The notes: generated by a model not told the origin, from the letters alone. A stretch of 64,000 nt of DNA from an uncultured Muribaculaceae bacterium (GCA_964370545.1 CAYJJQ010000001.1:133560-197559); one strand, 5' to 3'. Positions 4,145-63,092 are shown, numbered from the stretch's first letter. A program made the numbers and translations.

Positions 4145-4855
4145 ATGAAGTTTTTTTTTGATAAGAAAATATTATATGTATTATTGGCTTTTATTATTTG
4201 CGTAGGTGTTACTACACAAAGTATTTTTATTTGGTACTTAGAAAAAGTTACTCCTAAAATAAATCAAATAGTAGTTGCTAAGTTAGAAAAAATAACTTAT
4301 GAAATAATAACTGATAAAATAAATACTGATTTAATTAATGAAAATAATTTAAAAGATATTATTCATATAACTAAAAATAATGAAGGAGAAATATTAACTG
4401 TTGATTACAATTTAGAAAAAGCATATAGTGTTAATAATACTATAAATAATTCTATTAGAAATTCTCTTAATCACTTAGAAACAGGTGCTTTACAAAATAG
4501 TGAGTTTTTAGTAGGAGATAATAGTATATATATTCACGAACCATTATTTGTAGCATCAGATTATGCACTACTATCTAATTTCGGTCCTAAAATACCCATT
4601 AAAATTAGTTTTATAGGTACTATTGTAACTAATTTAGAAACTAGGATAACTAGTTATGGTCTTAATAATGTATTAAATGAAATATATGTAAAGGTAGAAA
4701 TTAGTGAATTAATTACAACTCCAACAACCTCACATACTATAAAACTTGAATATGATATTCTTATTGATGCTACAATGATTAATGGGAGAGTGCCTTCATT
4801 TTATGGAGGAGAAATTACTACAGAAAGTAACATTTTAGATATTCCATTAGAATAA
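4145..4855 (+). CDS. yunB: sporulation protein YunB
   Basis: N-terminal TM helix. Blocks ALLSNFGPKIPIKISFIGTIVTNLETRITSYGLNNV and INGRVPSFYGGE match my recollection of B. subtilis YunB (ALLGNLGPKIPVRF..., IQGDVPQFYNGG). Confidence 0.8.
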   Translation: MKFFFDKKILYVLLAFIICVGVTTQSIFIWYLEKVTPKINQIVVAKLEKITYEIITDKINTDLINENNLKDIIHITKNNEGEILTVDYNLEKAYSVNNTINNSIRNSLNHLETGALQNSEFLVGDNSIYIHEPLFVASDYALLSNFGPKIPIKISFIGTIVTNLETRITSYGLNNVLNEIYVKVEISELITTPTTSHTIKLEYDILIDATMINGRVPSFYGGEITTESNILDIPLE

Positions 4856-4878
4856 CATTTGTGCTATACTTATAATAG

Positions 4879-5664
4879 GTGAGAATAGTGAATTCGTATT
4901 TTATAAATGAAGCAATAGATATATCAATAAAAAGTTATTTAGATCACAAATTAACTCCAGATAGTTTGGAGTTTAATTCATTTAATGTGATAATAATACG
5001 TATGCTTTCTTTAATTTACGGAGAATTAGACATCACTAGTCCTTATATTGGACATAACGAAGATTTATTTGCTTCAAATTTAAAAAAATATGAATTAAAT
5101 GAAAACAATTATAATAATTTTATAAATAATATGCAAGCATATTATGTTGAAGATAAAAGTGGTAAAATACCAAATTCAATGTATATACCAGTTATTAATT
5201 TAGTAATTGATATGTTTACTTTAAAGAAAAATAATTTTAAAGTAACAATGGAAGAAACAGAACATTTTAAATTTTTAATTAAAAGTTTGAATTCGCCTTT
5301 TGAAACTCAAATATTAAATTACTTTGATACAGGCATTCATAAAAATATTATTTCTGCTAACATAGTAAAACCTAAAAAAATGTTAGCGCCAGAAGCATAT
5401 ACTGTTATTAACAAGAATTATACTGATATTGCACTTCTTAGTGCAGAGGATATAGAAAAAATAAACTCTGAAGTATATAAAGTTTTAGAAGTAAATGAAA
5501 AAGAACCTAATTTTGAATATTTATTTGAAAAAGCATTAATTGATTTTTGGAATAAAAGAGCTCCACTTACTAGTGGAAATGGTTACGTTGATATTTTATT
5601 GATACTTGGAATAATATGTACTATAATATTATTAGTAATTATTGGAACAATAATATTTTTATAG
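4879..5664 (+). CDS. hypothetical protein with C-terminal transmembrane anchor
   Basis: 261-aa ORF with GTG start. C-terminal helix ILLILGIICTIILLVIIGTIIFL. No family recognised. Confidence 0.55.
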   Translation: MRIVNSYFINEAIDISIKSYLDHKLTPDSLEFNSFNVIIIRMLSLIYGELDITSPYIGHNEDLFASNLKKYELNENNYNNFINNMQAYYVEDKSGKIPNSMYIPVINLVIDMFTLKKNNFKVTMEETEHFKFLIKSLNSPFETQILNYFDTGIHKNIISANIVKPKKMLAPEAYTVINKNYTDIALLSAEDIEKINSEVYKVLEVNEKEPNFEYLFEKALIDFWNKRAPLTSGNGYVDILLILGIICTIILLVIIGTIIFL

Positions 5665-5673
5665 GGAGAGTTT

Positions 5674-5946
5674 ATGGAATTTAATGATATAAAATATGAA
5701 GTAATTAAAGAAGAAAAAGATGCAATTGATATAGAATTGCTTAAAGACAAAATAACAGATTACTTTAAAGCATATGATTATATAGTAGGGGATTGGGCAT
5801 ATGGAAAAGTTAGATTAAAAGGTTTTTGTGATAAAGATAATAAACTATATAAACCTTTAAATGATTATGATAAAGTAAACGATTATATCGAAGAAAAATG
5901 TGCTCATGGATGTAAATATTTTATTATAAAAAAAATTGATAAATAA
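5674..5946 (+). CDS. yutD: YutD-family protein (DUF1027)
   Basis: YDYIVGDWAYGKVRLKGF and C-terminal HGCKYFIIKKI match B. subtilis YutD (YDYIVGDWGYGQLRLKGF ... FGCAYFVLKRI). gggag RBS. Confidence 0.85.
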   Translation: MEFNDIKYEVIKEEKDAIDIELLKDKITDYFKAYDYIVGDWAYGKVRLKGFCDKDNKLYKPLNDYDKVNDYIEEKCAHGCKYFIIKKIDK

Positions 5947-5991
5947 TATATACTATGCTATAATTAATTAGAATAAGAAGGGAAGATAAAA

Positions 5992-6819
5992 ATGGGGAAA
6001 ATTAAATTAAAATTAGTTTCTGGAAGTGAAGTAGAAAAGAATTTAATAAATGCTTTTAAATCAGAAAATGAAACATATATAGTATTTGATAATGAGTCAG
6101 TAGGAGCTATGGGGTTACCTATTATTTTAGTTTCCAAAGTATTTGATAATAAAGTTACTAAAATTATAGAACAAACAGAGTGGCAAAAAGCTAAAGAACA
6201 ATTAAAATTAATTATTGCTGGTAATGCAGTAGAATTTGTTAATGTTGCTCCGGAAATGGTAGCAGATGATATTTACTTTACTCAATTAACATTACCTATA
6301 GCGTCATTTGAAGCCCTTAAAAACAATTATAAACCTACAGGAGAAGCTCCAAGCGCTCCTGCAGCAGTTACGACTGCTCCAGAGGTACCTGTGGCTCCAG
6401 TAGCTCCAGTAGCACCTATAATGCCTGAAGTGGTTCCAGTTGTACCTGAAGTAGCTCCAATGCCAGAGGTTACACCGGTGGTACCAGAAATAACACCAGT
6501 GATGCCAGCAATGCCTGAAGCAACTCCAGTTATTCCAGAACCAGTTCCGATGCCTGAAGTAGCACCGATAGTGCCTGAAATAACTCCAGTAATGCCAGTG
6601 ATGCCTGAAGCGGCGCCAGTTATTCCAGAGCCTGCTCCAATGCCTGAAGTAGCACCTGTAGTGCCGGAAATAACTCCGATAGTGCCAGTGATGCCTGAAG
6701 CGGCGCCAATTGTTAATACTGAAGTAAAGGCAATTGATATGGATGAACTTAAGAAAAATTTTATGCAATCTTGTGAAAAAATGTTTGATGAATTAGTTGA
6801 ACAATTAAAAAATAACTAA
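5992..6819 (+). CDS. hypothetical protein with a central Pro/Val/Glu/Ala-rich repeat region
   Basis: 275-aa ORF with a good RBS. A globular N-terminal domain of about 115 aa is followed by about 125 aa of PEVAP/PEITP/MPEA repeats and a short helical C-terminus. Confidence 0.75.
6460..6713 (+). repeat. 90-bp tandem repeat, about 2.8 copies, in-frame inside the CDS
   Basis: Units start at 6460, 6550 and 6640, each beginning atgcc(a/t)ga(g/a)gt. Each encodes MPEV(A/T)P(V/I)VPEITP(V/I)(M/V)P(A/V)MPEA(A/T)PVIPEP(A/V)P. Copies differ by scattered substitutions. Confidence 0.9.
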
Positions 6820-17601: not shown

Positions 17602-17646
17602 ATGCCATCTAATAAAATATATGTTATAATTAATTAGGTGATAAAA

Positions 17647-18564
17647 ATGCTAGAAGAAGTTAGTATGATAGATAAATATGGAACTTTATTAACATTAAAA
17701 GAATATATAACAGATCCAGCAATAGCAAGAGATAATGAGATTAAAGAATGTTTACTTACTTTACTTACTCCTGATAAAAGTGCTTTATTAGTAGGTAAAG
17801 CTGGTATTGGTAAAACAGCTATAGTTGAAGGGATTGCATATAGAATAAAAAATAATGATGTTCCTGATGCTTTAAAGGGTTATGAAATAATAAAAGTAAA
17901 TATAACCAATTTATTAGGAACTATTGAAACAGAAGGTGCTACAGATAGTAAACTTGATGTTTTTATTAAAGAACTTTCTGAAAAAACTAAAACTATTATT
18001 TTTATTGATGAAACTCATTTACTAGTAAATAGAAATGGTGGAGTAGATTTTGCTAATATGTTAAAGCCAGTATTAGATAGAGGTTTAATCAAAATGATTG
18101 GTGCTACTACTACTGAAGAATATGAACAGTATATTTTAAGAGATAGAGCGTTTTTAAGAAGATTTCAAAAAGTAGAAATAATAGAAACAGATAAGCCTAC
18201 GACAGTTGAAATACTAATGGGAACTTTACCTAGATTAGAAAAACAAACGGGAGTAAAGATTAGTTATCCGCTGGGAACTATAAAAAAATTATGTGAATTT
18301 ATTGTTGAAATGACAGATGAATATAAAAGAGTATATGAAATTGCCAGTAGATATCCTGATATTTGTTTAACAATTTTATCAAATGCACTAACCTATGCAT
18401 TATATGAAAATAGTAAAGAAGCAAGAATTAGACATTTTTATAAAGCAGTATATAATGCTAAGAATATATATCAGGATGCAAAAATTAAAGAAATAGCTAG
18501 ATTTAAAGAAGTATTTTCTGATATGTTAATAAGTGAAGGTGTTGATTTAAATGATGTTAAGTAA
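17647..18564 (+). CDS. stand-alone Clp/Hsp100 D1-type AAA+ ATPase (no N-domain, M-domain or D2)
   Basis: Colinear with the ClpB/ClpC D1 module. Walker A is [21 protein letters not shown]. Walker B is [50 protein letters not shown] carries sensor-1 and the Arg finger. An extended -10 TGTTATAAT lies at 17622-17630. Confidence 0.85.
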
Positions 18565-25502: not shown

Positions 25503-25546
25503 ATTAATTAAATATGATATAATAAATTTTATTAGGGAGGTTTAAC

Positions 25547-26296
25547 ATGAATAAATGTACATTTTATTTTGATAATAACAGAATAAGTGCTTATCCAGGA
25601 GAATACATAAAAAAGAAGTGGAATAAAATATATTCAAAAAGAGTTTCTCGAACGACATTTTTAGTTTTAGAAGAGGGGAAAAAAGAACTGATTTTAAAGC
25701 TTGAACAAATGATAGAATATATGATTAATAATATAAATTCTTCTAGGGTATTAATTATAAGTGGTCTTTCAAGAGCTAATATGGGAATGATTCTGTCTCT
25801 ATGTAATCAAAAAATGAGAATTTTAGAACAAAATAATAATGCACTAAAATCTGAAAATGATATAGCTTGGGAAAATCTTGCGGAAAATTTTAATTCCTTT
25901 AAAGACTTTGAAACTTTTATTTTTGAAAAACTAGCTACTTGCTATACATATGACAATGAAAATATGGGTGTGGAAAAATTAATTGACATTCTTAGTTACG
26001 ATGAATTAAAAAATCTTTTATATTTATCACAATTAAAACTAGAAAGACTTCATTTACTAGATAATTTACCTATTGATATTGAAAACTTAAACTCTGAAAA
26101 TGAGCTTGACTTTTATCTATGCAATTGTGATTATATAGATGATATAGATTTAAAAAAATATTTAGTAAAATTAGGAGTTGCAGATCCGGAAAAATCATAC
26201 TATGGACCGCAATTAATAGAAATGTTAAATATGTATTATATAGAAAATAATGCTAATCAAAGAAAATTACAAAAAGAAAAAGTTGATAGAGATTAA
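25547..26296 (+). CDS. hypothetical protein (module 1 of the tRNA-His-adjacent array)
   Basis: 249-aa ORF with gggagg RBS. TGATATAAT at 25515-25523. The stop codon sits in the loop of the repeated terminator hairpin. Confidence 0.6.
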   Translation: MNKCTFYFDNNRISAYPGEYIKKKWNKIYSKRVSRTTFLVLEEGKKELILKLEQMIEYMINNINSSRVLIISGLSRANMGMILSLCNQKMRILEQNNNALKSENDIAWENLAENFNSFKDFETFIFEKLATCYTYDNENMGVEKLIDILSYDELKNLLYLSQLKLERLHLLDNLPIDIENLNSENELDFYLCNCDYIDDIDLKKYLVKLGVADPEKSYYGPQLIEMLNMYYIENNANQRKLQKEKVDRD

Positions 26297-26368
26297 TCTA
26301 TCAACTTTATTTTTTATGGGGCAGTTTTAATTGAAGTTGCTAACTTCCTTTAAGTAGAGTATAACTCT
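26282..26368 (+). repeat. boundary repeat copy A (terminator hairpin + T-run + ATGGGGC + second hairpin)
   Basis: gttgataga-gattaa-tctatcaac, a T-run, then TGGGGC at 26317-26322. This is followed by AGTTTTAATTGAAGTTGCTAACTTCCTTTAAGTAGAGTATAACTCT, with hairpin GAAGTTgctAACTTC at 26333-26347. Confidence 0.85.
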
Positions 26369-26419
26369 AAAATTTGGAATTCACAATAGTTTTTGATATA
26401 ATTTAATAGAGGTGCAATT

Positions 26420-27265
26420 ATGGTGTATTTGAGAGAACTAGATTTATTAAGCGAACGTGAAGAGAGAGGGTGTATTGGTGCTGATACAAGAACAATTCAT
26501 AATAATAAATATCCACTCGACATATTTCCACCTAAACAAGTAAGTAATTTGAAATTTTCAGAAGTTACCATAATCTATGGAGGTAATGGTTCAGGAAAAT
26601 CAACATTACTTAATTTAATTGCAAGCGCTGTGAATTCAAATAAACATAACAATTTTGATAAAGGTGTATTTTTCAATAATTATGTTAGTAAAATTGACTA
26701 CAACTTAAATAAGAATAATTTGAATGAAATAAATATGATAACAAGTGATGATGTTTTCGAATATATGCTTAATATTAGAAGTCTTAATAGTGGAATTAGT
26801 ACAAGAAAAGAAGATTTAAAAAATGAATGGTTAAATAGTAAATATGGAGATTTCAAAAGTAATAATTTTGAATATGAAGAATTAAAAAAAATTGTTGATT
26901 CAAGAAAATTTACAATGTCAGAATATACAAGAAGAAGACTAGCAAATAATAATATACCAGAAAACTCAAATGGAGAATCAGCTTTAATGTACTGGCAAAA
27001 AGAGATAAAGGAAAATGGAATATATATTTTGGATGAACCTGAAAACAGTTTGTCGGCAGAAAATCAAATAAAATTAAAAGAGTACTTAGAAGAATCAGCA
27101 AGATTTTATAATTGTCAAATTATATTGGCAACACATTCACCATTTTTATTAAGTATTAAAGATGCACTTATTTATGATTTAGACAGTATACCAGTTACAA
27201 CTAAAGATTGGAAAGAATTGCATAACGTTAAATTGTATTTCGAATTTTTTGAAGCAAATAAATAA
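26420..27265 (+). CDS. ABC/SMC-type P-loop ATPase (small AAA_21-like predicted ATPase) (module 2)
   Basis: Walker A IIYGGNGSGKSTLLNLI. Signature-like SNGESALMY. Walker B IYILDEPENSL. H-loop ILATHSPFLL. TGATATAAT at 26394-26402. Confidence 0.8.
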   Translation: MVYLRELDLLSEREERGCIGADTRTIHNNKYPLDIFPPKQVSNLKFSEVTIIYGGNGSGKSTLLNLIASAVNSNKHNNFDKGVFFNNYVSKIDYNLNKNNLNEINMITSDDVFEYMLNIRSLNSGISTRKEDLKNEWLNSKYGDFKSNNFEYEELKKIVDSRKFTMSEYTRRRLANNNIPENSNGESALMYWQKEIKENGIYILDEPENSLSAENQIKLKEYLEESARFYNCQIILATHSPFLLSIKDALIYDLDSIPVTTKDWKELHNVKLYFEFFEANK

Positions 27266-27268
27266 AAA

Positions 27269-27357
27269 GTAGATAGAAATTAATCTATCAACTTTATTTT
27301 TATAATGGGGCAGTTATAGTTGAAGTTGCTAACTTCCTTTAAATAAAGTATAACTCT
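27269..27357 (+). repeat. boundary repeat copy B
   Basis: gtagataga-aattaa-tctatcaac, a T-run, then TGGGGC at 27306-27311. This is followed by AGTTATAGTTGAAGTTGCTAACTTCCTTTAAATAAAGTATAACTCT. Near-identical to copy A. Confidence 0.85.
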
Positions 27358-27411
27358 TATATTTTGTTAAATCAAGTATATATGATATAATAATCTTTAT
27401 TAAGGAGAATT

Positions 27412-28137
27412 ATGATGTCAAAATTGCAAAGTATAAATATATATAGTGATGAGTTTGCTTGGTATATAAAAGAAAATATAGATATGATGGGAATGATTCA
27501 TGCAACATTGTTAAAAAAAGATGAAACAGTAATAATTAGAACAAGTCCACATAATAATATATATTTAGACACATGTGTATTTCACAACCATTATAAGGAT
27601 GGTAAATCGAGGTTTTATATTGATTTAGAAAAGAAATATTATACATGTTATGGTTGTAATCAAGCGGGAAATATAATTACTTTAGTGTCAGAAATTTATG
27701 GTATTTCCAGAGATCAAACTATAGAAGTGTTGGCGGTGTTATTACAGATCTTTAATGAAAAAATATTAAATGAGCATCAGGTCAGAATATTAAATGAAAT
27801 CAAACTAGAATATGTAAAAAAAGATGAAGACTATTTAAAAATGTGTTCTGAAAAACTTAATTATTTTAAAATGAGAATATATAGTTTAATAAAATTTTAT
27901 ATTGATAACAATAAAAAAATTGATGAATCTAGGATTGCAAACAGGTTATCTATCAGTATATCAATAGTTAATTTAGCTATTAATGAGTTAATAAAAAATG
28001 ATGAATGCGAAATAGCTCCAAAGAAATATATAGAAGAGATGAATTTCAGGAATTTTTTAAATGGAGAAGGATATCAAAGAGTTAAAAAAAATAACATCGA
28101 TTATGAATATGAAAATTATGATGACTTACCATTTTAA
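27412..28137 (+). CDS. CHC2 (DnaG-type) zinc-finger protein without a TOPRIM/primase catalytic domain (module 3)
   Basis: CVFHNHYKDGKSRFYIDLEKKYYTCYGCNQAGNIITLV fits the C-x2-H-x(17-20)-C-x2-C primase zinc-finger pattern. The remaining roughly 150 aa are helical with no TOPRIM motifs. TGATATAAT at 27383-27391. Confidence 0.7.
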   Translation: MMSKLQSINIYSDEFAWYIKENIDMMGMIHATLLKKDETVIIRTSPHNNIYLDTCVFHNHYKDGKSRFYIDLEKKYYTCYGCNQAGNIITLVSEIYGISRDQTIEVLAVLLQIFNEKILNEHQVRILNEIKLEYVKKDEDYLKMCSEKLNYFKMRIYSLIKFYIDNNKKIDESRIANRLSISISIVNLAINELIKNDECEIAPKKYIEEMNFRNFLNGEGYQRVKKNNIDYEYENYDDLPF

Positions 28138-28150
28138 TATAATTAAAAAA

Positions 28151-28194
28151 GTTGATAGAAATTAATCTATCAACTTTTATTTTTCTAATGGGGC
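28151..28194 (+). repeat. boundary repeat copy C (left half only), merging into the tRNA-His 3' end
   Basis: gttgataga-aattaa-tctatcaac, a T-run, then TAATGGGGC. TGGGGC (28189-28194) is the complement of the tRNA-His 3' terminal GCCCCA. Confidence 0.85.
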
Positions 28195-28265
28195 GATCTA
28201 CGGGAATCGAACCCGCGAATACCAGAGCCACAATCTGGCGTGTTAACCACTTCACCAAGACCGCC
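28189..28265 (-). tRNA. tRNA-His (GUG) with encoded G-1 and CCA
   Basis: 77 nt, GGCGGTCTTGGTGAAGTGGTTAACACGCCAGATTGTGGCTCTGG... Anticodon loop UUGUGGC. G-1 lies opposite C73. Confidence 0.9.
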
Positions 28266-28277
28266 ATAACACTTTAA

Positions 28278-28306
28278 ATTTTAACAAAAAAACCAGTAAA
28301 AAGCAA
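28278..28306 (-). promoter_or_regulatory. candidate promoter for tRNA-His
   Basis: Minus strand reads TTGCTT, 17 nt, TAAAAT. The -10 ends 12 nt before the tRNA 5' end. Confidence 0.45.
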
Positions 28307-50675: not shown

Positions 50676-51005
50676 ATGTATAGTGAAAGAATTTATATGA
50701 CTCCTCAAGAGCTTTTAGATTACAAATTTAAAGTTGATGCTAGAGGATATAGACCACAAGAAGTTGATAAAATTCTGGACATGGTTATTCGTGATGAAAC
50801 TGAATATATAAATACTATCAAAAGTTTAGAACAACAACTTAAAGATGCTAATGAAGACAATATTAAACTTAAACAAGAGCTTCGTAGATTAAAAGTTGAT
50901 TTGGAAGATGCCGAAAATAATTCAGCATCAAGTGGTCCTAGTAACTTAGACCTTTTAAAAAGAATTAGCCAATTAGAAAAAATAGTATATAGAAAATATG
51001 ATTAA
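50676..51005 (+). CDS. gpsB: cell-cycle protein GpsB (DivIVA-domain)
   Basis: LLDYKFKVDARGYRPQEVDKILDMVIRD and C-terminal NLDLLKRISQLEKIVY match B. subtilis GpsB as recalled. rnpB is adjacent as in Bacillus. Confidence 0.9.
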   Translation: MYSERIYMTPQELLDYKFKVDARGYRPQEVDKILDMVIRDETEYINTIKSLEQQLKDANEDNIKLKQELRRLKVDLEDAENNSASSGPSNLDLLKRISQLEKIVYRKYD

Positions 51006-51340
51006 TCTGGGCAAATGCTGCATATAACCTATGTAGAGGAAAGTCCATGCTCGCACAAGCTGTAATGCTTGTAGTGTTCGTGTCTTAGGAAAAAATAACT
51101 AAGAGTAGTATTACTAACGGCTTTGAAATAACCTTAACTGGTTAAAGTAAATTTAAAAGTGCCACAGAAACGAGTTTTTTAGGAAACTAAAAAAATGAAA
51201 CGAGGTAAACCCCACGAGCGAGAAACCCAAATTTTGGTAGGGGAACTTTTATGAAGGAAACAAACGGATTAAAGGACTGTAATAGTAGATAAATATTTGC
51301 CGCTTCCAAGTGAAGTACAGAACATGGCTTATAAGATTTT
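51004..51340 (+). ncRNA. rnpB: RNase P RNA, bacterial type B
   Basis: Universal blocks GAGGAAAGTCCATGCTCGCAC, AGTGCCACAGAAACG, GTAAACCCCACGAGCGAGAAACCCAAATTTTGGTAGGGGAAC and ACAGAACATGGCTTA are colinear with B. subtilis rnpB. Ends are approximate to within about 5 nt. Confidence 0.9.
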
Positions 51341-62693: not shown

Positions 62694-63092
62694 ATGAAAG
62701 TATTAAGTCTTAAAGAACCATATGCTTCACTGATAAAAGAAGGTATAAAATTAGTTGAAACCAGAAGTTGGAAAACCAACTATCGTGGTGAAATTTATAT
62801 ACATGCAAGTTTAACTAAAGAAAAAACAAATCATAAACATGATGATTTCTTTAAACTAACTGAAAACTTAAATAAAAATCCAGGATATATATTATGTAAA
62901 GTTAATTTAGTTGATTGTATTTTAATGGATGAGAGTTTTATTGAAAATCTAAAAAACAATAATAATAAAGAATATTTATGTGGTAGTTATGAAATAGGTA
63001 GATATGCTTGGGTTTTAGAAAATATAGAAGTCATTAAACCAATAAAAGCAAAAGGACAACTTGGTATATGGAATTTCAATGAAAATATTTGA
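62694..63092 (+). CDS. ASCH (PUA-like) domain protein
   Basis: MKVLSLKEPYASLIKEGIKLVETRSW...GEIYIHAS is a typical ASCH N-terminal pattern. 132 aa. TGA stop. Confidence 0.7.
   Translation: MKVLSLKEPYASLIKEGIKLVETRSWKTNYRGEIYIHASLTKEKTNHKHDDFFKLTENLNKNPGYILCKVNLVDCILMDESFIENLKNNNNKEYLCGSYEIGRYAWVLENIEVIKPIKAKGQLGIWNFNENI

Follow-up and report, generated by a model that had tools for sequence, protein, structure and literature searches.

A putative array of gene cassettes next to tRNA-His in a low-GC lineage of Bacilli

In a 64-kb stretch of DNA from an uncultured low-GC gut bacterium, referred to here as the window, three consecutive genes lie next to the gene for tRNA-His. The reading that we prefer, and to which we give an even chance, is that the locus is an array of gene cassettes specific to this lineage, with the 3' terminus of tRNA-His as its anchor and a short core as the place of site-specific recombination. 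Comparison of the sequences indicates a real cassette array rather than duplicated regulatory DNA, and the repeat, in the available sample, does not behave as a dispersed one. This is argued by the varying neighbors of individual cassettes, the difference between the close relatives L001 and L020, the unoccupied site in L033, the decay of distal units and the absence of dispersed copies of the junction.

Architecture of the locus

The original prediction described three unrelated plus-strand genes separated by a repeated block and ending at the 3' end of tRNA-His, and the coordinates were confirmed. The features are as follows.

25503-25546, plus strand: remnant left end of cassette 1, with the extended -10 TGATATAAT at 25515-25523, the conserved leader and the RBS
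25547-26296, plus strand: cargo gene 1, 249 amino acids, without known family
26274-26386, minus strand: transcription unit of junction A, with -35 TTGTGA at 26386-26381 and -10 TATACT at 26363-26358
About 26351 to 26274, minus strand: predicted RNA of junction A, ~78 nt, with 5' hairpin H2 GAAGUUagcAACUUC, single-stranded stretch CUGCCCCAU and terminator H1 at 26279-26308
26317-26322, plus strand: core TGGGGC of junction A, with the same letters as the complementary strand of the tRNA-His 3' terminus
26374-26402, plus strand: promoter of cassette 2, TTGGAA-17-TATAAT with TG extension
26420-27265, plus strand: cargo gene 2, 281 amino acids, Pfam AAA_21/AAA_15/SMC_N/ABC_tran
27261-27375, minus strand: transcription unit of junction B, with -35 TTGATT at 27375-27370 and -10 TATACT at 27352-27347
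About 27340 to 27261, minus strand: predicted RNA of junction B, ~80 nt, H1 with one stem mismatch
27306-27311, plus strand: core TGGGGC of junction B
27364-27391, plus strand: promoter of cassette 3, TTGTTA-16-TATAAT with TG extension, followed by conserved leader and RBS
27412-28137, plus strand: cargo gene 3, 241 amino acids, Pfam CHC2 Zn_ribbon_DnaG domain only
28147-28178, both strands: H1 copy C, scored as a terminator both ways, at the right end of cassette 3
28189-28264, minus strand: tRNA-His(gtg), whose last 6 nt, GCCCCA, are the array anchor common to every junction

The identical extended -10 predicted for the three genes was found as TGATATAAT at 25515, 26394 and 27383. A shared hairpin with a 9-bp stem had been described after each gene; its core GATAGAnnTTAATCTATCAACTTT was recovered in three copies (26285, 27272 and 28154), where shuffled sequences predict 0, but copy B of this hairpin, H1, carries one stem mismatch (GTAGATAGA). 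TTGAAGTTGCTAACTTCCTTTAA occurred in two copies (26331 and 27320; 0 expected). Repeat family D1 is 93 nt long with 78% identity and a spacing of 989, and family D2 has three copies spaced 987 and 882. The units measure 989 and 883 bp from TGGGGC end to TGGGGC end, as had been noted. The 46-bp segment shared by junctions A and B does end 26 nt before TGATATAAT in both copies, but the boundary repeat reaches about 25 nt further than this segment. At the tRNA itself, the predicted complementarity was verified, with TGGGGC at 28189-28194 opposite GCCCCA, the last six nucleotides of tRNA-His.

Every cassette brings both a TGATATAAT promoter and a terminator of its own. The left end is conserved over about 70-110 bp, with AGTTTTAGTTGAAGTTGCTAACTTCCTTTAAATAGAGTATAACTC directly after TGGGGC and then back-to-back promoters, behind which the conserved leader and RBS often come; in cassette 2, for example, the plus-strand promoter lies back to back with the minus-strand promoter of junction A. 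The right end is conserved over about 45 bp and consists of the bidirectional terminator GTTGATAGA-N6-TCTATCAAC, a T-run and (A)TGGGGC. Three short, perfect and separate palindromes are present in the junction (H1, 9 bp; H2, 6 bp; H3, 5 bp), of which H2 is set back from the left end by about 10 nt and H1 from the right end by about 12-20 nt. The distance from H1 to the core differs by several nucleotides among copies, which fits poorly with H1 as a rigid recombinase-binding arm. Homology between copies of one cassette stops at the core TGGGGC. The core of junction A is the proposed crossover region, the crossover being bracketed between H1 and the 46-bp segment and no finer.

On the minus strand, each junction is predicted to be a small transcription unit with a promoter, an RNA of ~78 nt and a terminator. 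Its parts are a TTGnnn-N17-TATACT promoter, an RNA that carries a 5' hairpin and GCCCCA, and a terminator shared with tRNA-His. The motif TTGnnn-17-TATACT is kept in about 10 copies though the spacers differ, even beside minus-strand cargo. H1 received a terminator score on both strands, and its copy C appears to be the bidirectional intrinsic terminator of gene 3 on the plus strand and tRNA-His on the minus strand. The covariance model matched junction A at 26274-26364(-) with 106.3 bits and junction B at 27261-27353(-) with 105.7 bits; the fold z-score of junction A is -5.3. No covariation was seen in the junction stems, and in DNA as AT-rich as this, single promoter matches are as frequent as chance predicts; the junction RNA is therefore a prediction only. 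The junction had no match in Rfam at the gathering threshold or at E values up to 10. This minus-strand promoter-RNA-terminator character of the junction is new in the present analysis. The RNA unit probably accounts for the junction being as tightly conserved as a tRNA gene, and we infer that the RNA is expressed.

The gene products agreed with those originally assigned: Pfam returned no family for gene 1, an ABC/SMC-type ATPase for gene 2, and CHC2 without TOPRIM for gene 3. Gene 1, a clade-restricted orphan, has homologues at 45-76% amino acid identity, recurs at the distal array end in L009 and L026, and has only three relatives among 1.84 billion representative proteins. Its structure model was unusable (pLDDT 41). 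The leader of gene 1 is homologous to that of gene 3, as predicted (repeat family D3), and to the leaders that precede the homologues of gene 1 found in L026 and L009; the cassette 3 leader is common to L004_a, L009_b and gene 1. At the left junction of cassette 1, the hairpin and the segment are gone, the NUDIX gene ends there instead, and the covariance model detected no junction at 25503-25546. Gene 1 is an old, decayed cassette that has lost its left junction.

Gene 2 encodes a stand-alone ABC/SMC-type P-loop ATPase, for which MADS3, PtuA and AriA-type ATPases were the best matches in the defense library. It has no partner gene, and a homologue on Paraclostridium plasmids is likewise solitary. 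The CHC2 primase-type zinc finger of gene 3 covers residues about 49-113, and the C-terminal part is helical. The homologue search with this protein, an orphan, returned only the self match, and its structure model was also unusable. As originally stated, no recombinase was found in the 64-kb window (68 ORFs of at least 120 amino acids read by eye, with Pfam searches on the 10 unrecognized ones). Neither these ORFs nor the ~40 array and flank proteins from 12 loci that were searched with Pfam included a transposase, an HUH enzyme or a recombinase of the tyrosine or serine type.

Shared junctions and variable cargo in related genomes

Comparison with relatives brought out, at the level of sequence, the conservation of this architecture across species, the variable cargo, the shuffling of cassettes, an unoccupied site and a gradient of decay. 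The same ~115-bp junction was found in about 15 related low-GC MAGs of a clade with 21-27% GC. Its orientation is constant and the arrays end at tRNA-His, although the tRNA-His sequences differ among genomes; an array ending at tRNA-His was seen in at least 10 related genomes. The 11 complete cassettes span 717-2560 bp and carry one or two genes each. The cargo often consists of anti-phage genes, among them CBASS Cap15 with a SMODS cyclase and the restriction enzyme Eco47II with a Dcm methylase. ASCH, Abi_2, HD, GNAT, a sigma factor and many orphans or products without assignment were also found. Most loci were located by a search with H1, and the unbiased samples are L030-L039 only, so the collection carries an ascertainment bias toward H1 itself.

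The variable presence of modules in relatives, anticipated in the original prediction, was observed in several ways. Cargo differs at the same junctions. The close species pair L001 and L020 has both flanks in common (56-94% amino acid identity) and differs in one cassette. A cassette with ORF420 is 91% identical in DNA between L020 and L002, with homology stopping at TGGGGC; to its right, L020 has tRNA-His, whereas L002 has another junction. Behind the family B cassette, L004, L028 and L015 each carry a different cassette. In the more distant relative L033 the site is unoccupied and reads ybjQ, a different hairpin, a T-run, ATGGGGC, tRNA-His and xfp; only about 12-15 nt are in common with the cassette right end. 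In L001 and in L020, H1 is missing from the leftmost junction, which retains the terminator belonging to the flank gene. The L033 site and these leftmost junctions indicate that H1 comes with the cassette and that the core is short. The GTTGATAGA hairpin is thus brought by the cassette and is not native to the tRNA locus.

Junctions proximal to the tRNA are closer to the consensus than distal ones in the window, L007, L020 and L015, with L009 as an exception. A 52-bp junction deletion has fused two cassettes in L026. At least nine MAG contigs end within a junction or at TGGGGC, as is expected of an intragenomic repeat. In other species a second type of hairpin (H1') occupies this TAATGGGGC-tRNA end, and contigs break there too. 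In a search of 268 kb with the covariance model, junction copies were confined to arrays or tRNA-His ends, which answers the concern, raised with the original prediction, that the repeat could be a dispersed element. Searches of viral contigs, of JGI metagenomes and of phage and plasmid records gave no copies.

In the mechanism proposed for the array, a circularized cassette would use its short (A)TGGGGC core to recombine with the 3' terminus of tRNA-His, where the sequence is identical. Insertion would regenerate tRNA-His and supply the cassette's terminator to the tRNA. Each new cassette would push older ones away from the tRNA, and the displaced junctions would decay. The recombining enzyme would act in trans, since none is encoded in the array. 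We infer the crossover at the core, by site-specific recombination with a trans-acting recombinase. Of the serial site-specific insertion at tRNA-His originally proposed, the cassette reading was upheld; the insertion mechanism is unproven, because no recombinase was found and homologous recombination between the ~115-bp junctions could shuffle cassettes.

Alternative explanations and known systems

RecA-dependent homologous recombination between the ~115-bp junctions could by itself gain, lose and swap cassettes, without a dedicated recombinase, either by natural transformation or by circle loop-out and re-insertion; the junction would be kept as a functional small RNA with promoter and terminator, and would provide portable homology. 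We consider this possible, if doubtful. No recombinase was found near 15 or more arrays, and the junctions, which are 80-91% identical across 95-116 nt (judged sufficient), have a function-like organization of their own. All arrays also occupy one locus, so that one founding event with later exchange would be enough; all array-bearing genomes could indeed derive from a single founding insertion. Precedents are the Neisseria minimal mobile elements, in which alternative cassettes occupy a fixed chromosomal site and are swapped by way of the conserved DNA on either side, without a dedicated recombinase (PMC3787668, PMC1797815), and the chromosomal integrons, where transformation drives cassette shuffling (PMC12614218). 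The present locus resembles the Neisseria elements in its alternative cassettes, fixed site and missing dedicated recombinase but differs in that each cassette has its own non-coding junction and is stacked in tandem, whereas in Neisseria the flanks are conserved genes. However, the 12-15 nt shared with the unoccupied site of L033 were judged too short for RecA-type recombination, so the founding insertion is not explained. The packaging of unrelated genes between standard ends is left without account, the decay gradient suggests entry at one end and not anywhere in the array, and H1' at the same tRNA end hints at repeated independent colonization of the core.

Non-autonomous single-stranded DNA elements of the IS200/IS605 type, mobilized by an HUH/Y1 transposase encoded elsewhere that recognizes H1 and H2 and inserts 3' of TGGGGC, would account for the perfect subterminal palindromes at both ends, the strictly fixed orientation, the insertion directly 3' of a fixed short sequence without duplication, and the right end closing with the target's hexamer. 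We regard this as improbable. The two end hairpins of this family resemble each other, whereas the sequences of H1 and H2 have nothing in common; neither the window nor the array proteins gave a Y1 transposase, no covariation backs a structural requirement, and the junction is at no other TGGGGC-containing site in the 268 kb. Even less credible is a generic REP, MITE or terminator-promoter block present in three chance copies among ordinary resident genes. The blocks do hold ordinary expression signals, and the window, at 64 kb, is only part of a contig that measures at least 207 kb. However, neither the rest of the window nor about 120 kb of non-array chromosome from relatives holds further copies, every copy in 15 or more genomes lies within an array ending at tRNA-His, and the cargo is variable. 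An ancient local duplication of regulatory DNA, giving a static three-gene locus, is a reading that the repeats in the window alone would allow. It was rejected and retains next to no credence, because the modules vary among relatives, which hold other genes between the same junctions and show presence/absence polymorphism, an unoccupied site and shuffled neighbors, and because the repeat does not occur as a generic, dispersed element in the examined DNA.

Sedentary chromosomal integrons store anti-phage cassettes (10.1101/2024.07.02.601686; 10.1101/2024.07.02.601719). The array proposed here shares with integrons a unidirectional layout, cassettes of 0.7-2.6 kb with one or two genes, a conserved repeat resembling a recombination site between cassettes, one privileged array end, many orphan and defense genes, and a position of apparently older cassettes farther from the entry point. 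In contrast to integrons, no IntI integrase lies beside the array (window and about 40 array and flank proteins), and entry would be at the 3' end of a tRNA gene and not at attI. In attC sites, imperfect inverted repeats form a single hairpin, and structure is conserved rather than sequence. The repeat here is nearly invariant in sequence, combines short perfect palindromes with a promoter, lacks the R''/L''/L'/R' architecture, and has the boundary TGGGGC|AGTT and not GTTRRRY. Integron cassettes are mostly promoterless and depend on a common Pc, whereas each cassette here has its own promoter and terminator, often with leader and RBS. The host is a low-GC member of Bacilli, and integrons are, to our knowledge, essentially absent from Bacilli/Firmicutes. 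The integron-like array offered as an alternative in the original prediction therefore stands as a description of the organization, but membership was rejected on intI, attC architecture and promoterless, Pc-driven cassettes.

Tandem tRNA-targeting integrative elements are known as tycheposons (10.1101/2020.12.28.424599), and CIME/IME accretion has been described in streptococci (PMC5704250). Common to these elements and the proposed array are insertion at a tRNA 3' end that regenerates the tRNA, successive arrivals that push earlier ones inward, decayed integrase-less elements with att sites that stay in tandem, and defense cargo. Tandem accretion at a tRNA 3' end with displaced, decayed older units was found here. 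Whereas those elements have their own or a recently lost integrase and mobility genes, none were seen in 15 or more arrays here; no element-borne integrase was seen in the arrays examined, and no autonomous parent element in viral, phage and plasmid collections. Their partial-tRNA repeats comprise tens of nucleotides, compared with 6-7 nt of tRNA here, the remainder being element specific, and the present units are 5-10 times smaller and highly standardized. A CIME-like state, with att kept and integrase lost, is compatible with these observations. The 46-bp segment is not a degenerate version of tRNA-His: it stays constant among genomes that differ in their tRNA-His, and it was called a tRNA by neither ARAGORN nor Rfam.

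In Xer-dependent modules, such as IMEX and the pdif modules of Acinetobacter plasmids, small modules are bounded by short conserved sites and the recombinase is encoded elsewhere in the host; the sites are dif-like and 28 bp long, with a 6-bp spacer between a XerC arm and a XerD arm. The cassettes here are similar in having one to a few genes, short conserved sites and a recombinase presumed to be elsewhere. Unlike pdif modules, which are bounded by inverted sites, the junctions here are direct repeats. The junction consensus has 13/28 mismatches to B. subtilis dif, which may differ from the host's own site, and 82% of random 130-nt chunks of the window match this dif equally well or better. 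Membership among Xer/dif sites was rejected, the junction being no closer to dif than random window DNA.

Significance of the array

A wider reading, which we hold unlikely, is that the locus represents a previously unrecognized gene-capture platform of Gram-positive bacteria, equivalent to integrons in function but built from unrelated parts, with the recombinase elsewhere. The tRNA-His 3' end would be the acceptor and the ~115-bp RNA-encoding junction the cassette recombination site. The predicted RNA covers the proposed crossover core and so might contribute to recombination or control it. The array would be a store of ready-to-express defense cassettes with promoter, RBS and terminator, many of unassigned function. 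Such arrays may be systematically under-reported, because the repeats break MAG assemblies at tRNA-His. The standardized promoter-RBS-gene-terminator format raises the question of how cassettes are made.

We know of single-gene capture and shuffling in cassette arrays essentially from integrons only. If the wider reading is true, the locus could give a new site-specific recombination system, with a portable site of ~115 bp and a tRNA acceptor. It would also offer compact anti-phage genes from a new source, since most of the cargo here belongs to no known family, and would represent an independent invention of the "cassette biobank" strategy in a low-GC Bacilli clade.

Gene content and repeats of the array

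The array was confirmed as three consecutive plus-strand genes with tRNA-His(gtg) beyond them on the minus strand. The features are as follows.

25547-26296, plus strand: gene 1, ORF of 249 aa
26420-27265, plus strand: gene 2, ORF of 281 aa
27412-28137, plus strand: gene 3, ORF of 241 aa, nearest the tRNA gene
28189-28264, minus strand: tRNA-His(gtg)

Gene 1, originally described as unknown, gave no family match in Pfam, NCBIfam, PHROG or PADLOC. The reading of gene 2 as a small ABC/SMC-type ATPase was borne out by matches to AAA_21 (1.8e-13) and AAA_15 (1e-11), and its top matches among defence libraries were the MADS3, PtuA and AriA ATPases. For gene 3, a CHC2 primase zinc finger was the sole domain match (3.7e-9), without TOPRIM, as predicted. 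Single-sequence AF2 models were of low confidence (pLDDT 41 for gene 1 and 35 for gene 3). Close relatives of gene 2 or gene 3 were not found on viral contigs in the viral scan; a blastn search of plasmid records yielded a distant homologue of gene 2, solitary on its plasmid.

The repeats on which the original prediction was built were recovered as well. The shared hairpin core is present in three copies and the second segment in two, with zero copies of each predicted from the shuffled window. A repeat search returned a 93-nt family at a spacing of 989 and a 42-nt family at spacings of 987 and 882. The common promoter element TGATATAAT lies at 25515, 26394 and 27383, and TGGGGC at 28189-28194 complements the GCCCCA end of tRNA-His. 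The array region has ~25% GC, and its composition is flat throughout.

Conservation and predicted layout of the junction

Between cassettes lies a junction of ~115 bp, consisting of a hairpin with a 9-bp stem (H1), a T-run, the (A)TGGGGC core, a 46-bp segment with a palindrome (H2), and back-to-back promoters. A hairpin-core scan of 185,579 species-representative genomes, a collection that does not include the window's own genome, gave 29 loci. Six of these belong to an insertion-sequence end of Vagococcus that is unrelated to the junction, and several more are chance matches. About 15 loci belong to one MAG series, ERP123703, with 21-27% GC and sporulation genes, and these match far past the search pattern: hairpin, T-run, (A)TGGGGC, and then either tRNA-His or AGTTTTAGTTGAAGTTGCTAACTTCCTTTAAATAGAGTATAACTC... 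Across 12 copies from 8 genomes the mean column identity of the junction is 91% over 95 columns, with the hairpin and a 45-nt segment near-invariant. The tRNA-His genes of these genomes differ (mean identity 0.87, minimum 0.74). The evidence throughout is computational and drawn from fragmented MAGs, and it carries an ascertainment bias in that most loci were obtained by the hairpin search. At least nine MAG contigs end within the junction, as expected of an intragenomic repeat that short reads do not resolve.

A covariance model was built from the 12 copies and applied to 268 kb, which took in the whole 64-kb window and, from relatives, ~120 kb of ordinary chromosomal DNA. Its copies were confined to arrays or tRNA-His ends, and the top stray match reached 30 bits (E about 0.01). 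Exact scans of 2.9 million viral contigs and the JGI metagenome collection revealed no junction copies, nor was the junction found in 50,697 phage and 72,556 plasmid records, where blastn matched the tRNA itself. A loose alignment had suggested that the 46-bp segment is a decayed 3' half of tRNA-His. This reading was rejected: the segment is constant where the tRNA-His sequences differ, and ARAGORN and Rfam call no tRNA there.

The minus strand of every intact junction can be divided into a promoter, a hairpin-led transcribed region, a stretch predicted to be unpaired and a terminator. The promoter has the form TTGnnn-17 nt-TATACT, with the -35 variants TTGTGA, TTGATT, TTGCAC, TTGCTA, TTGACT and TTGCAT and spacers that are constant in length and variable in sequence. 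It is retained beside minus-strand cargo too (loci L013 and L009_a). The predicted transcribed region opens with the perfect hairpin GAAGUU-agc-AACUUC, followed by ~30 nt predicted to be single-stranded, including CUGCCCCAUUA, and the unit closes with the GTTGATAGA hairpin and a U-tract. Scored on either strand, this hairpin qualifies as an intrinsic terminator (4 sites versus 0.3 expected). The plus-strand cargo promoter stands back to back with the minus-strand one, their -35 boxes adjoining, and in one junction subtype a conserved leader and RBS reach the start codon. Promoter-like matches are about as frequent in this AT-rich DNA as chance predicts (29 found versus 25.4 expected), so it is the conservation of their geometry between species, and not the match as such, that speaks for the promoters. 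Judged from these elements, the junction is a predicted composite of a bidirectional terminator, a tRNA-like GCCCCA core, a putative gene for a small divergent RNA, and a leader for expression. These RNAs, predicted at ~78 nt, would have their 3' end and terminator in common with tRNA-His.

The stems of H1 and H2 are invariant and so could show no covariation, and no Rfam match to the junction was obtained, even at E up to 10. Pairing of the C-rich stretch of the RNA with cargo ribosome-binding sites was also considered and was rejected for want of sequence support, the ranks being inconsistent (3rd of 54 for genes 1 and 2, 52nd of 54 for gene 3).

Behaviour and cargo of the cassettes among relatives

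Five observations on relatives show that the units behave as cassettes. The closely related loci L001 and L020 have common flanks (left-flank gene 93% identical in amino acids, right 56-94%), and the cassette content between them differs. A cassette of L020 encoding a 420-aa protein has 91% DNA identity to its copy in L002; the homology begins just inside the left end, takes in the hairpin and stops at TGGGGC, after which L020 continues with tRNA-His and L002 with a further junction. A second cassette family has three different downstream neighbours in L004, L028 and L015. At their leftmost junction, L001 and L020 carry the flank gene's own terminator, not the GTTGATAGA hairpin; therefore, the hairpin arrives with the cassette, and the naive site shares only the T-run and ATGGGGC. 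The junction nearest the tRNA scores higher against the consensus than the distal one in the window (96 versus 86), L007 (88 versus 67) and L020 (71 versus 44), and in L015 the scores fall from 99 through 87 to 76 with growing distance from the tRNA. The exception to this gradient is L009 (proximal 91, distal 97). Relative to L009, the junction of L026 lacks exactly 52 bp, by which two cassettes are fused.

Relatives were also sampled without bias by using the neighbouring phosphoketolase gene (xfp) as an anchor. In L033 the site is apparently unoccupied, with ybjQ, a different hairpin (AACTAGTT-tttc-AACTAGTT), a T-run, ATGGGGC, tRNA-His and xfp in succession. In L034, a cassette gene and the GTTGATAGA hairpin with one loop change precede tRNA-His and xfp. 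The contigs L030, L035-L037 and L039 start at or just before TGGGGC. In three related species (L035:1-45, L036:1-60, L037:1-35), the hairpin TTGCCAACC-aatta-GGTTAGCAA stands ahead of the same CTTCTAATGGGGC-tRNA-His, and every contig breaks inside or near it. Within this hairpin, which may represent a second junction family, lies GTTAGCAACTT, to which the H2 core of the first family is reverse-complementary. L038 (60-125; xfp 70% identical), a contig that begins 125 nt upstream, differs again, with AAGTTGC-ttga-TGCAACTT as the hairpin before ACTGGGGC-tRNA-His. The hairpin beside the tRNA-His 3' end is thus lineage-variable, and the T-run and TGGGGC are constant.

Gene 1 has its promoter and leader in common with homologues in L026 and L009 and with other cassette leaders. 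Its left junction is gone, and the end of the NUDIX gene, the left flank of the array, is in its place. Gene 1 is the oldest, decayed cassette and not a resident gene. An exhaustive HMMER search of 1.84 billion representative proteins found only three relatives. Residues 186-225 match nine separate stretches of the 2418-aa protein P0125 (E 7.7e-13), which makes the C-terminal part of gene 1 a repeat-type module found in tandem elsewhere.

The genes between junctions change from genome to genome. The cargo of L013 comprises a CBASS pair (Cap15 receptor-effector and SMODS-type nucleotidyltransferase), an ASCH protein, and an Eco47II endonuclease with a C5 methylase; that of L005 includes an Abi_2 protein. 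Other loci hold HD-domain proteins, GNAT acetyltransferases, a sigma factor with a DUF3221 protein, and a MatE-like membrane protein. Many cargo proteins have no family, and PADLOC gave no match for 10 of these. Eleven complete cassettes measure 717-2560 bp, with one or two genes apiece.

In L013 (362-4713, original coordinates), the two-gene CBASS, the ASCH gene and a complete Eco47II-type restriction-modification pair share a single large cassette, at least 4.8 kb long, and all of them run against the direction of the junction's cargo promoter. Two very short cassettes that have a left end and promoter but lack any sizeable gene occur in L001 (oriented 2320-2520; ~180 bp, empty) and L020 (oriented 560-910; ~330 bp, with a possible small hydrophobic peptide), and these could be remnants or minimal cassettes. 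L002 (oriented 4400-6800) has three degenerate junctions, one with an inverted hairpin loop (TTAATT for AATTAA). Past its TGGGGC, part of the segment is missing, and what follows within the available stretch is a gene of the Mur-ligase family, not tRNA-His. L002 may represent a second site, or else the interior of a long array that has decayed.

The MAGs of L001-L028 are titled 'uncultured Muribaculaceae'. They carry the sporulation genes cotJB/cotJC, spoIID and gerA, the phosphoketolase relatives are labelled Bacilli or Mollicutes, and an RNase P RNA of class B is encoded in the window at 51003-51336. The Muribaculaceae title is almost certainly mistaken; the host is more likely a low-GC spore-former of the Bacilli.

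Proposed mode of insertion and likeness to known systems

The original prediction noted no integrase or recombinase in the window, and this was upheld. All 68 ORFs of at least 120 aa were read as ordinary chromosomal genes, among them spmA/B, sufB, scpA/B, dnaD, nth, PBP1A, recU, arcABD, dnaB/dnaI, recA, rny and RNase J. Pfam searches found no recombinase or transposase among 10 unrecognised window ORFs, nor was one found among ~40 array proteins. No intact recombinase-bearing array was recovered through the phosphoketolase anchor, because the tRNA-His junction is where most MAG contigs break off. Just downstream of tRNA-Asn (17638-18564), a 308-aa protein resembling a truncated Clp-type AAA domain narrowly passed the TniB cutoff (23.0 bits against 22.4) and matched plain AAA far more strongly; it is probably not a transposition protein. 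Gene 1 was considered as the array recombinase since it recurs at the distal ends of arrays. This role was rejected: gene 1 is absent from L001 and L020, whose arrays are visible in full, and it has no recognisable domain; its AF2 model was also unusable.

A Xer/dif site in the junction was likewise rejected. One stretch matches what we take to be the XerC arm at 9 of 11 positions; the full-site comparison was at background level and the XerD-like arm is the -35 region of the promoters. The window's best match to B. subtilis dif (62875-62902, 7 of 28 positions mismatched, XerD-arm half nearly perfect) is probably due to chance, since it lies inside a 132-aa ASCH-like ORF.

We prefer, at roughly even probability, a mechanism in which an enzyme encoded outside the array would insert circular cassettes site-specifically at the (A)TGGGGC core. 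It is preferred because homology with the unoccupied site is short, orientation is fixed, homology between cassette copies ends at the core, and the junctions show the decay gradient. A less probable but still credible course is that cassettes of an established array are exchanged by homologous recombination between the ~115-bp junctions, which would be kept for an RNA and regulatory function of their own; precedents are the minimal mobile elements of Neisseria (PMC3787668) and transformation-driven shuffling in chromosomal integrons (PMC12614218). An IS200/IS605-like single-strand mechanism, weakly supported, is improbable. The comparative data speak against a generic dispersed repeat, which is very unlikely given the confinement of junction copies to arrays and tRNA-His ends in the 268 kb searched, and equally against static duplication, to which we attach next to no probability.

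Compared with known systems, location and polarity place the arrays near elements that target tRNA genes in tandem, namely tycheposons (10.1101/2020.12.28.424599) and CIME accretion (PMC5704250). However, tRNA-targeting elements are defined by an integrase, which the arrays lack; moreover, the repeats have only 6-7 nt in common with the tRNA, and the units are much smaller and standardised. The description 'integron-like' stood for the organisation but failed every defining test: intI and the attC architecture are absent, and the cassettes have their own promoters. No description of this architecture was found in the literature searched, and we class it as a gene-cassette array or tRNA-anchored island. 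In organisation, the arrays resemble above all sedentary chromosomal integrons, which bank anti-phage cassettes (10.1101/2024.07.02.601686). From the company kept in related arrays, the window genes may be defence genes.
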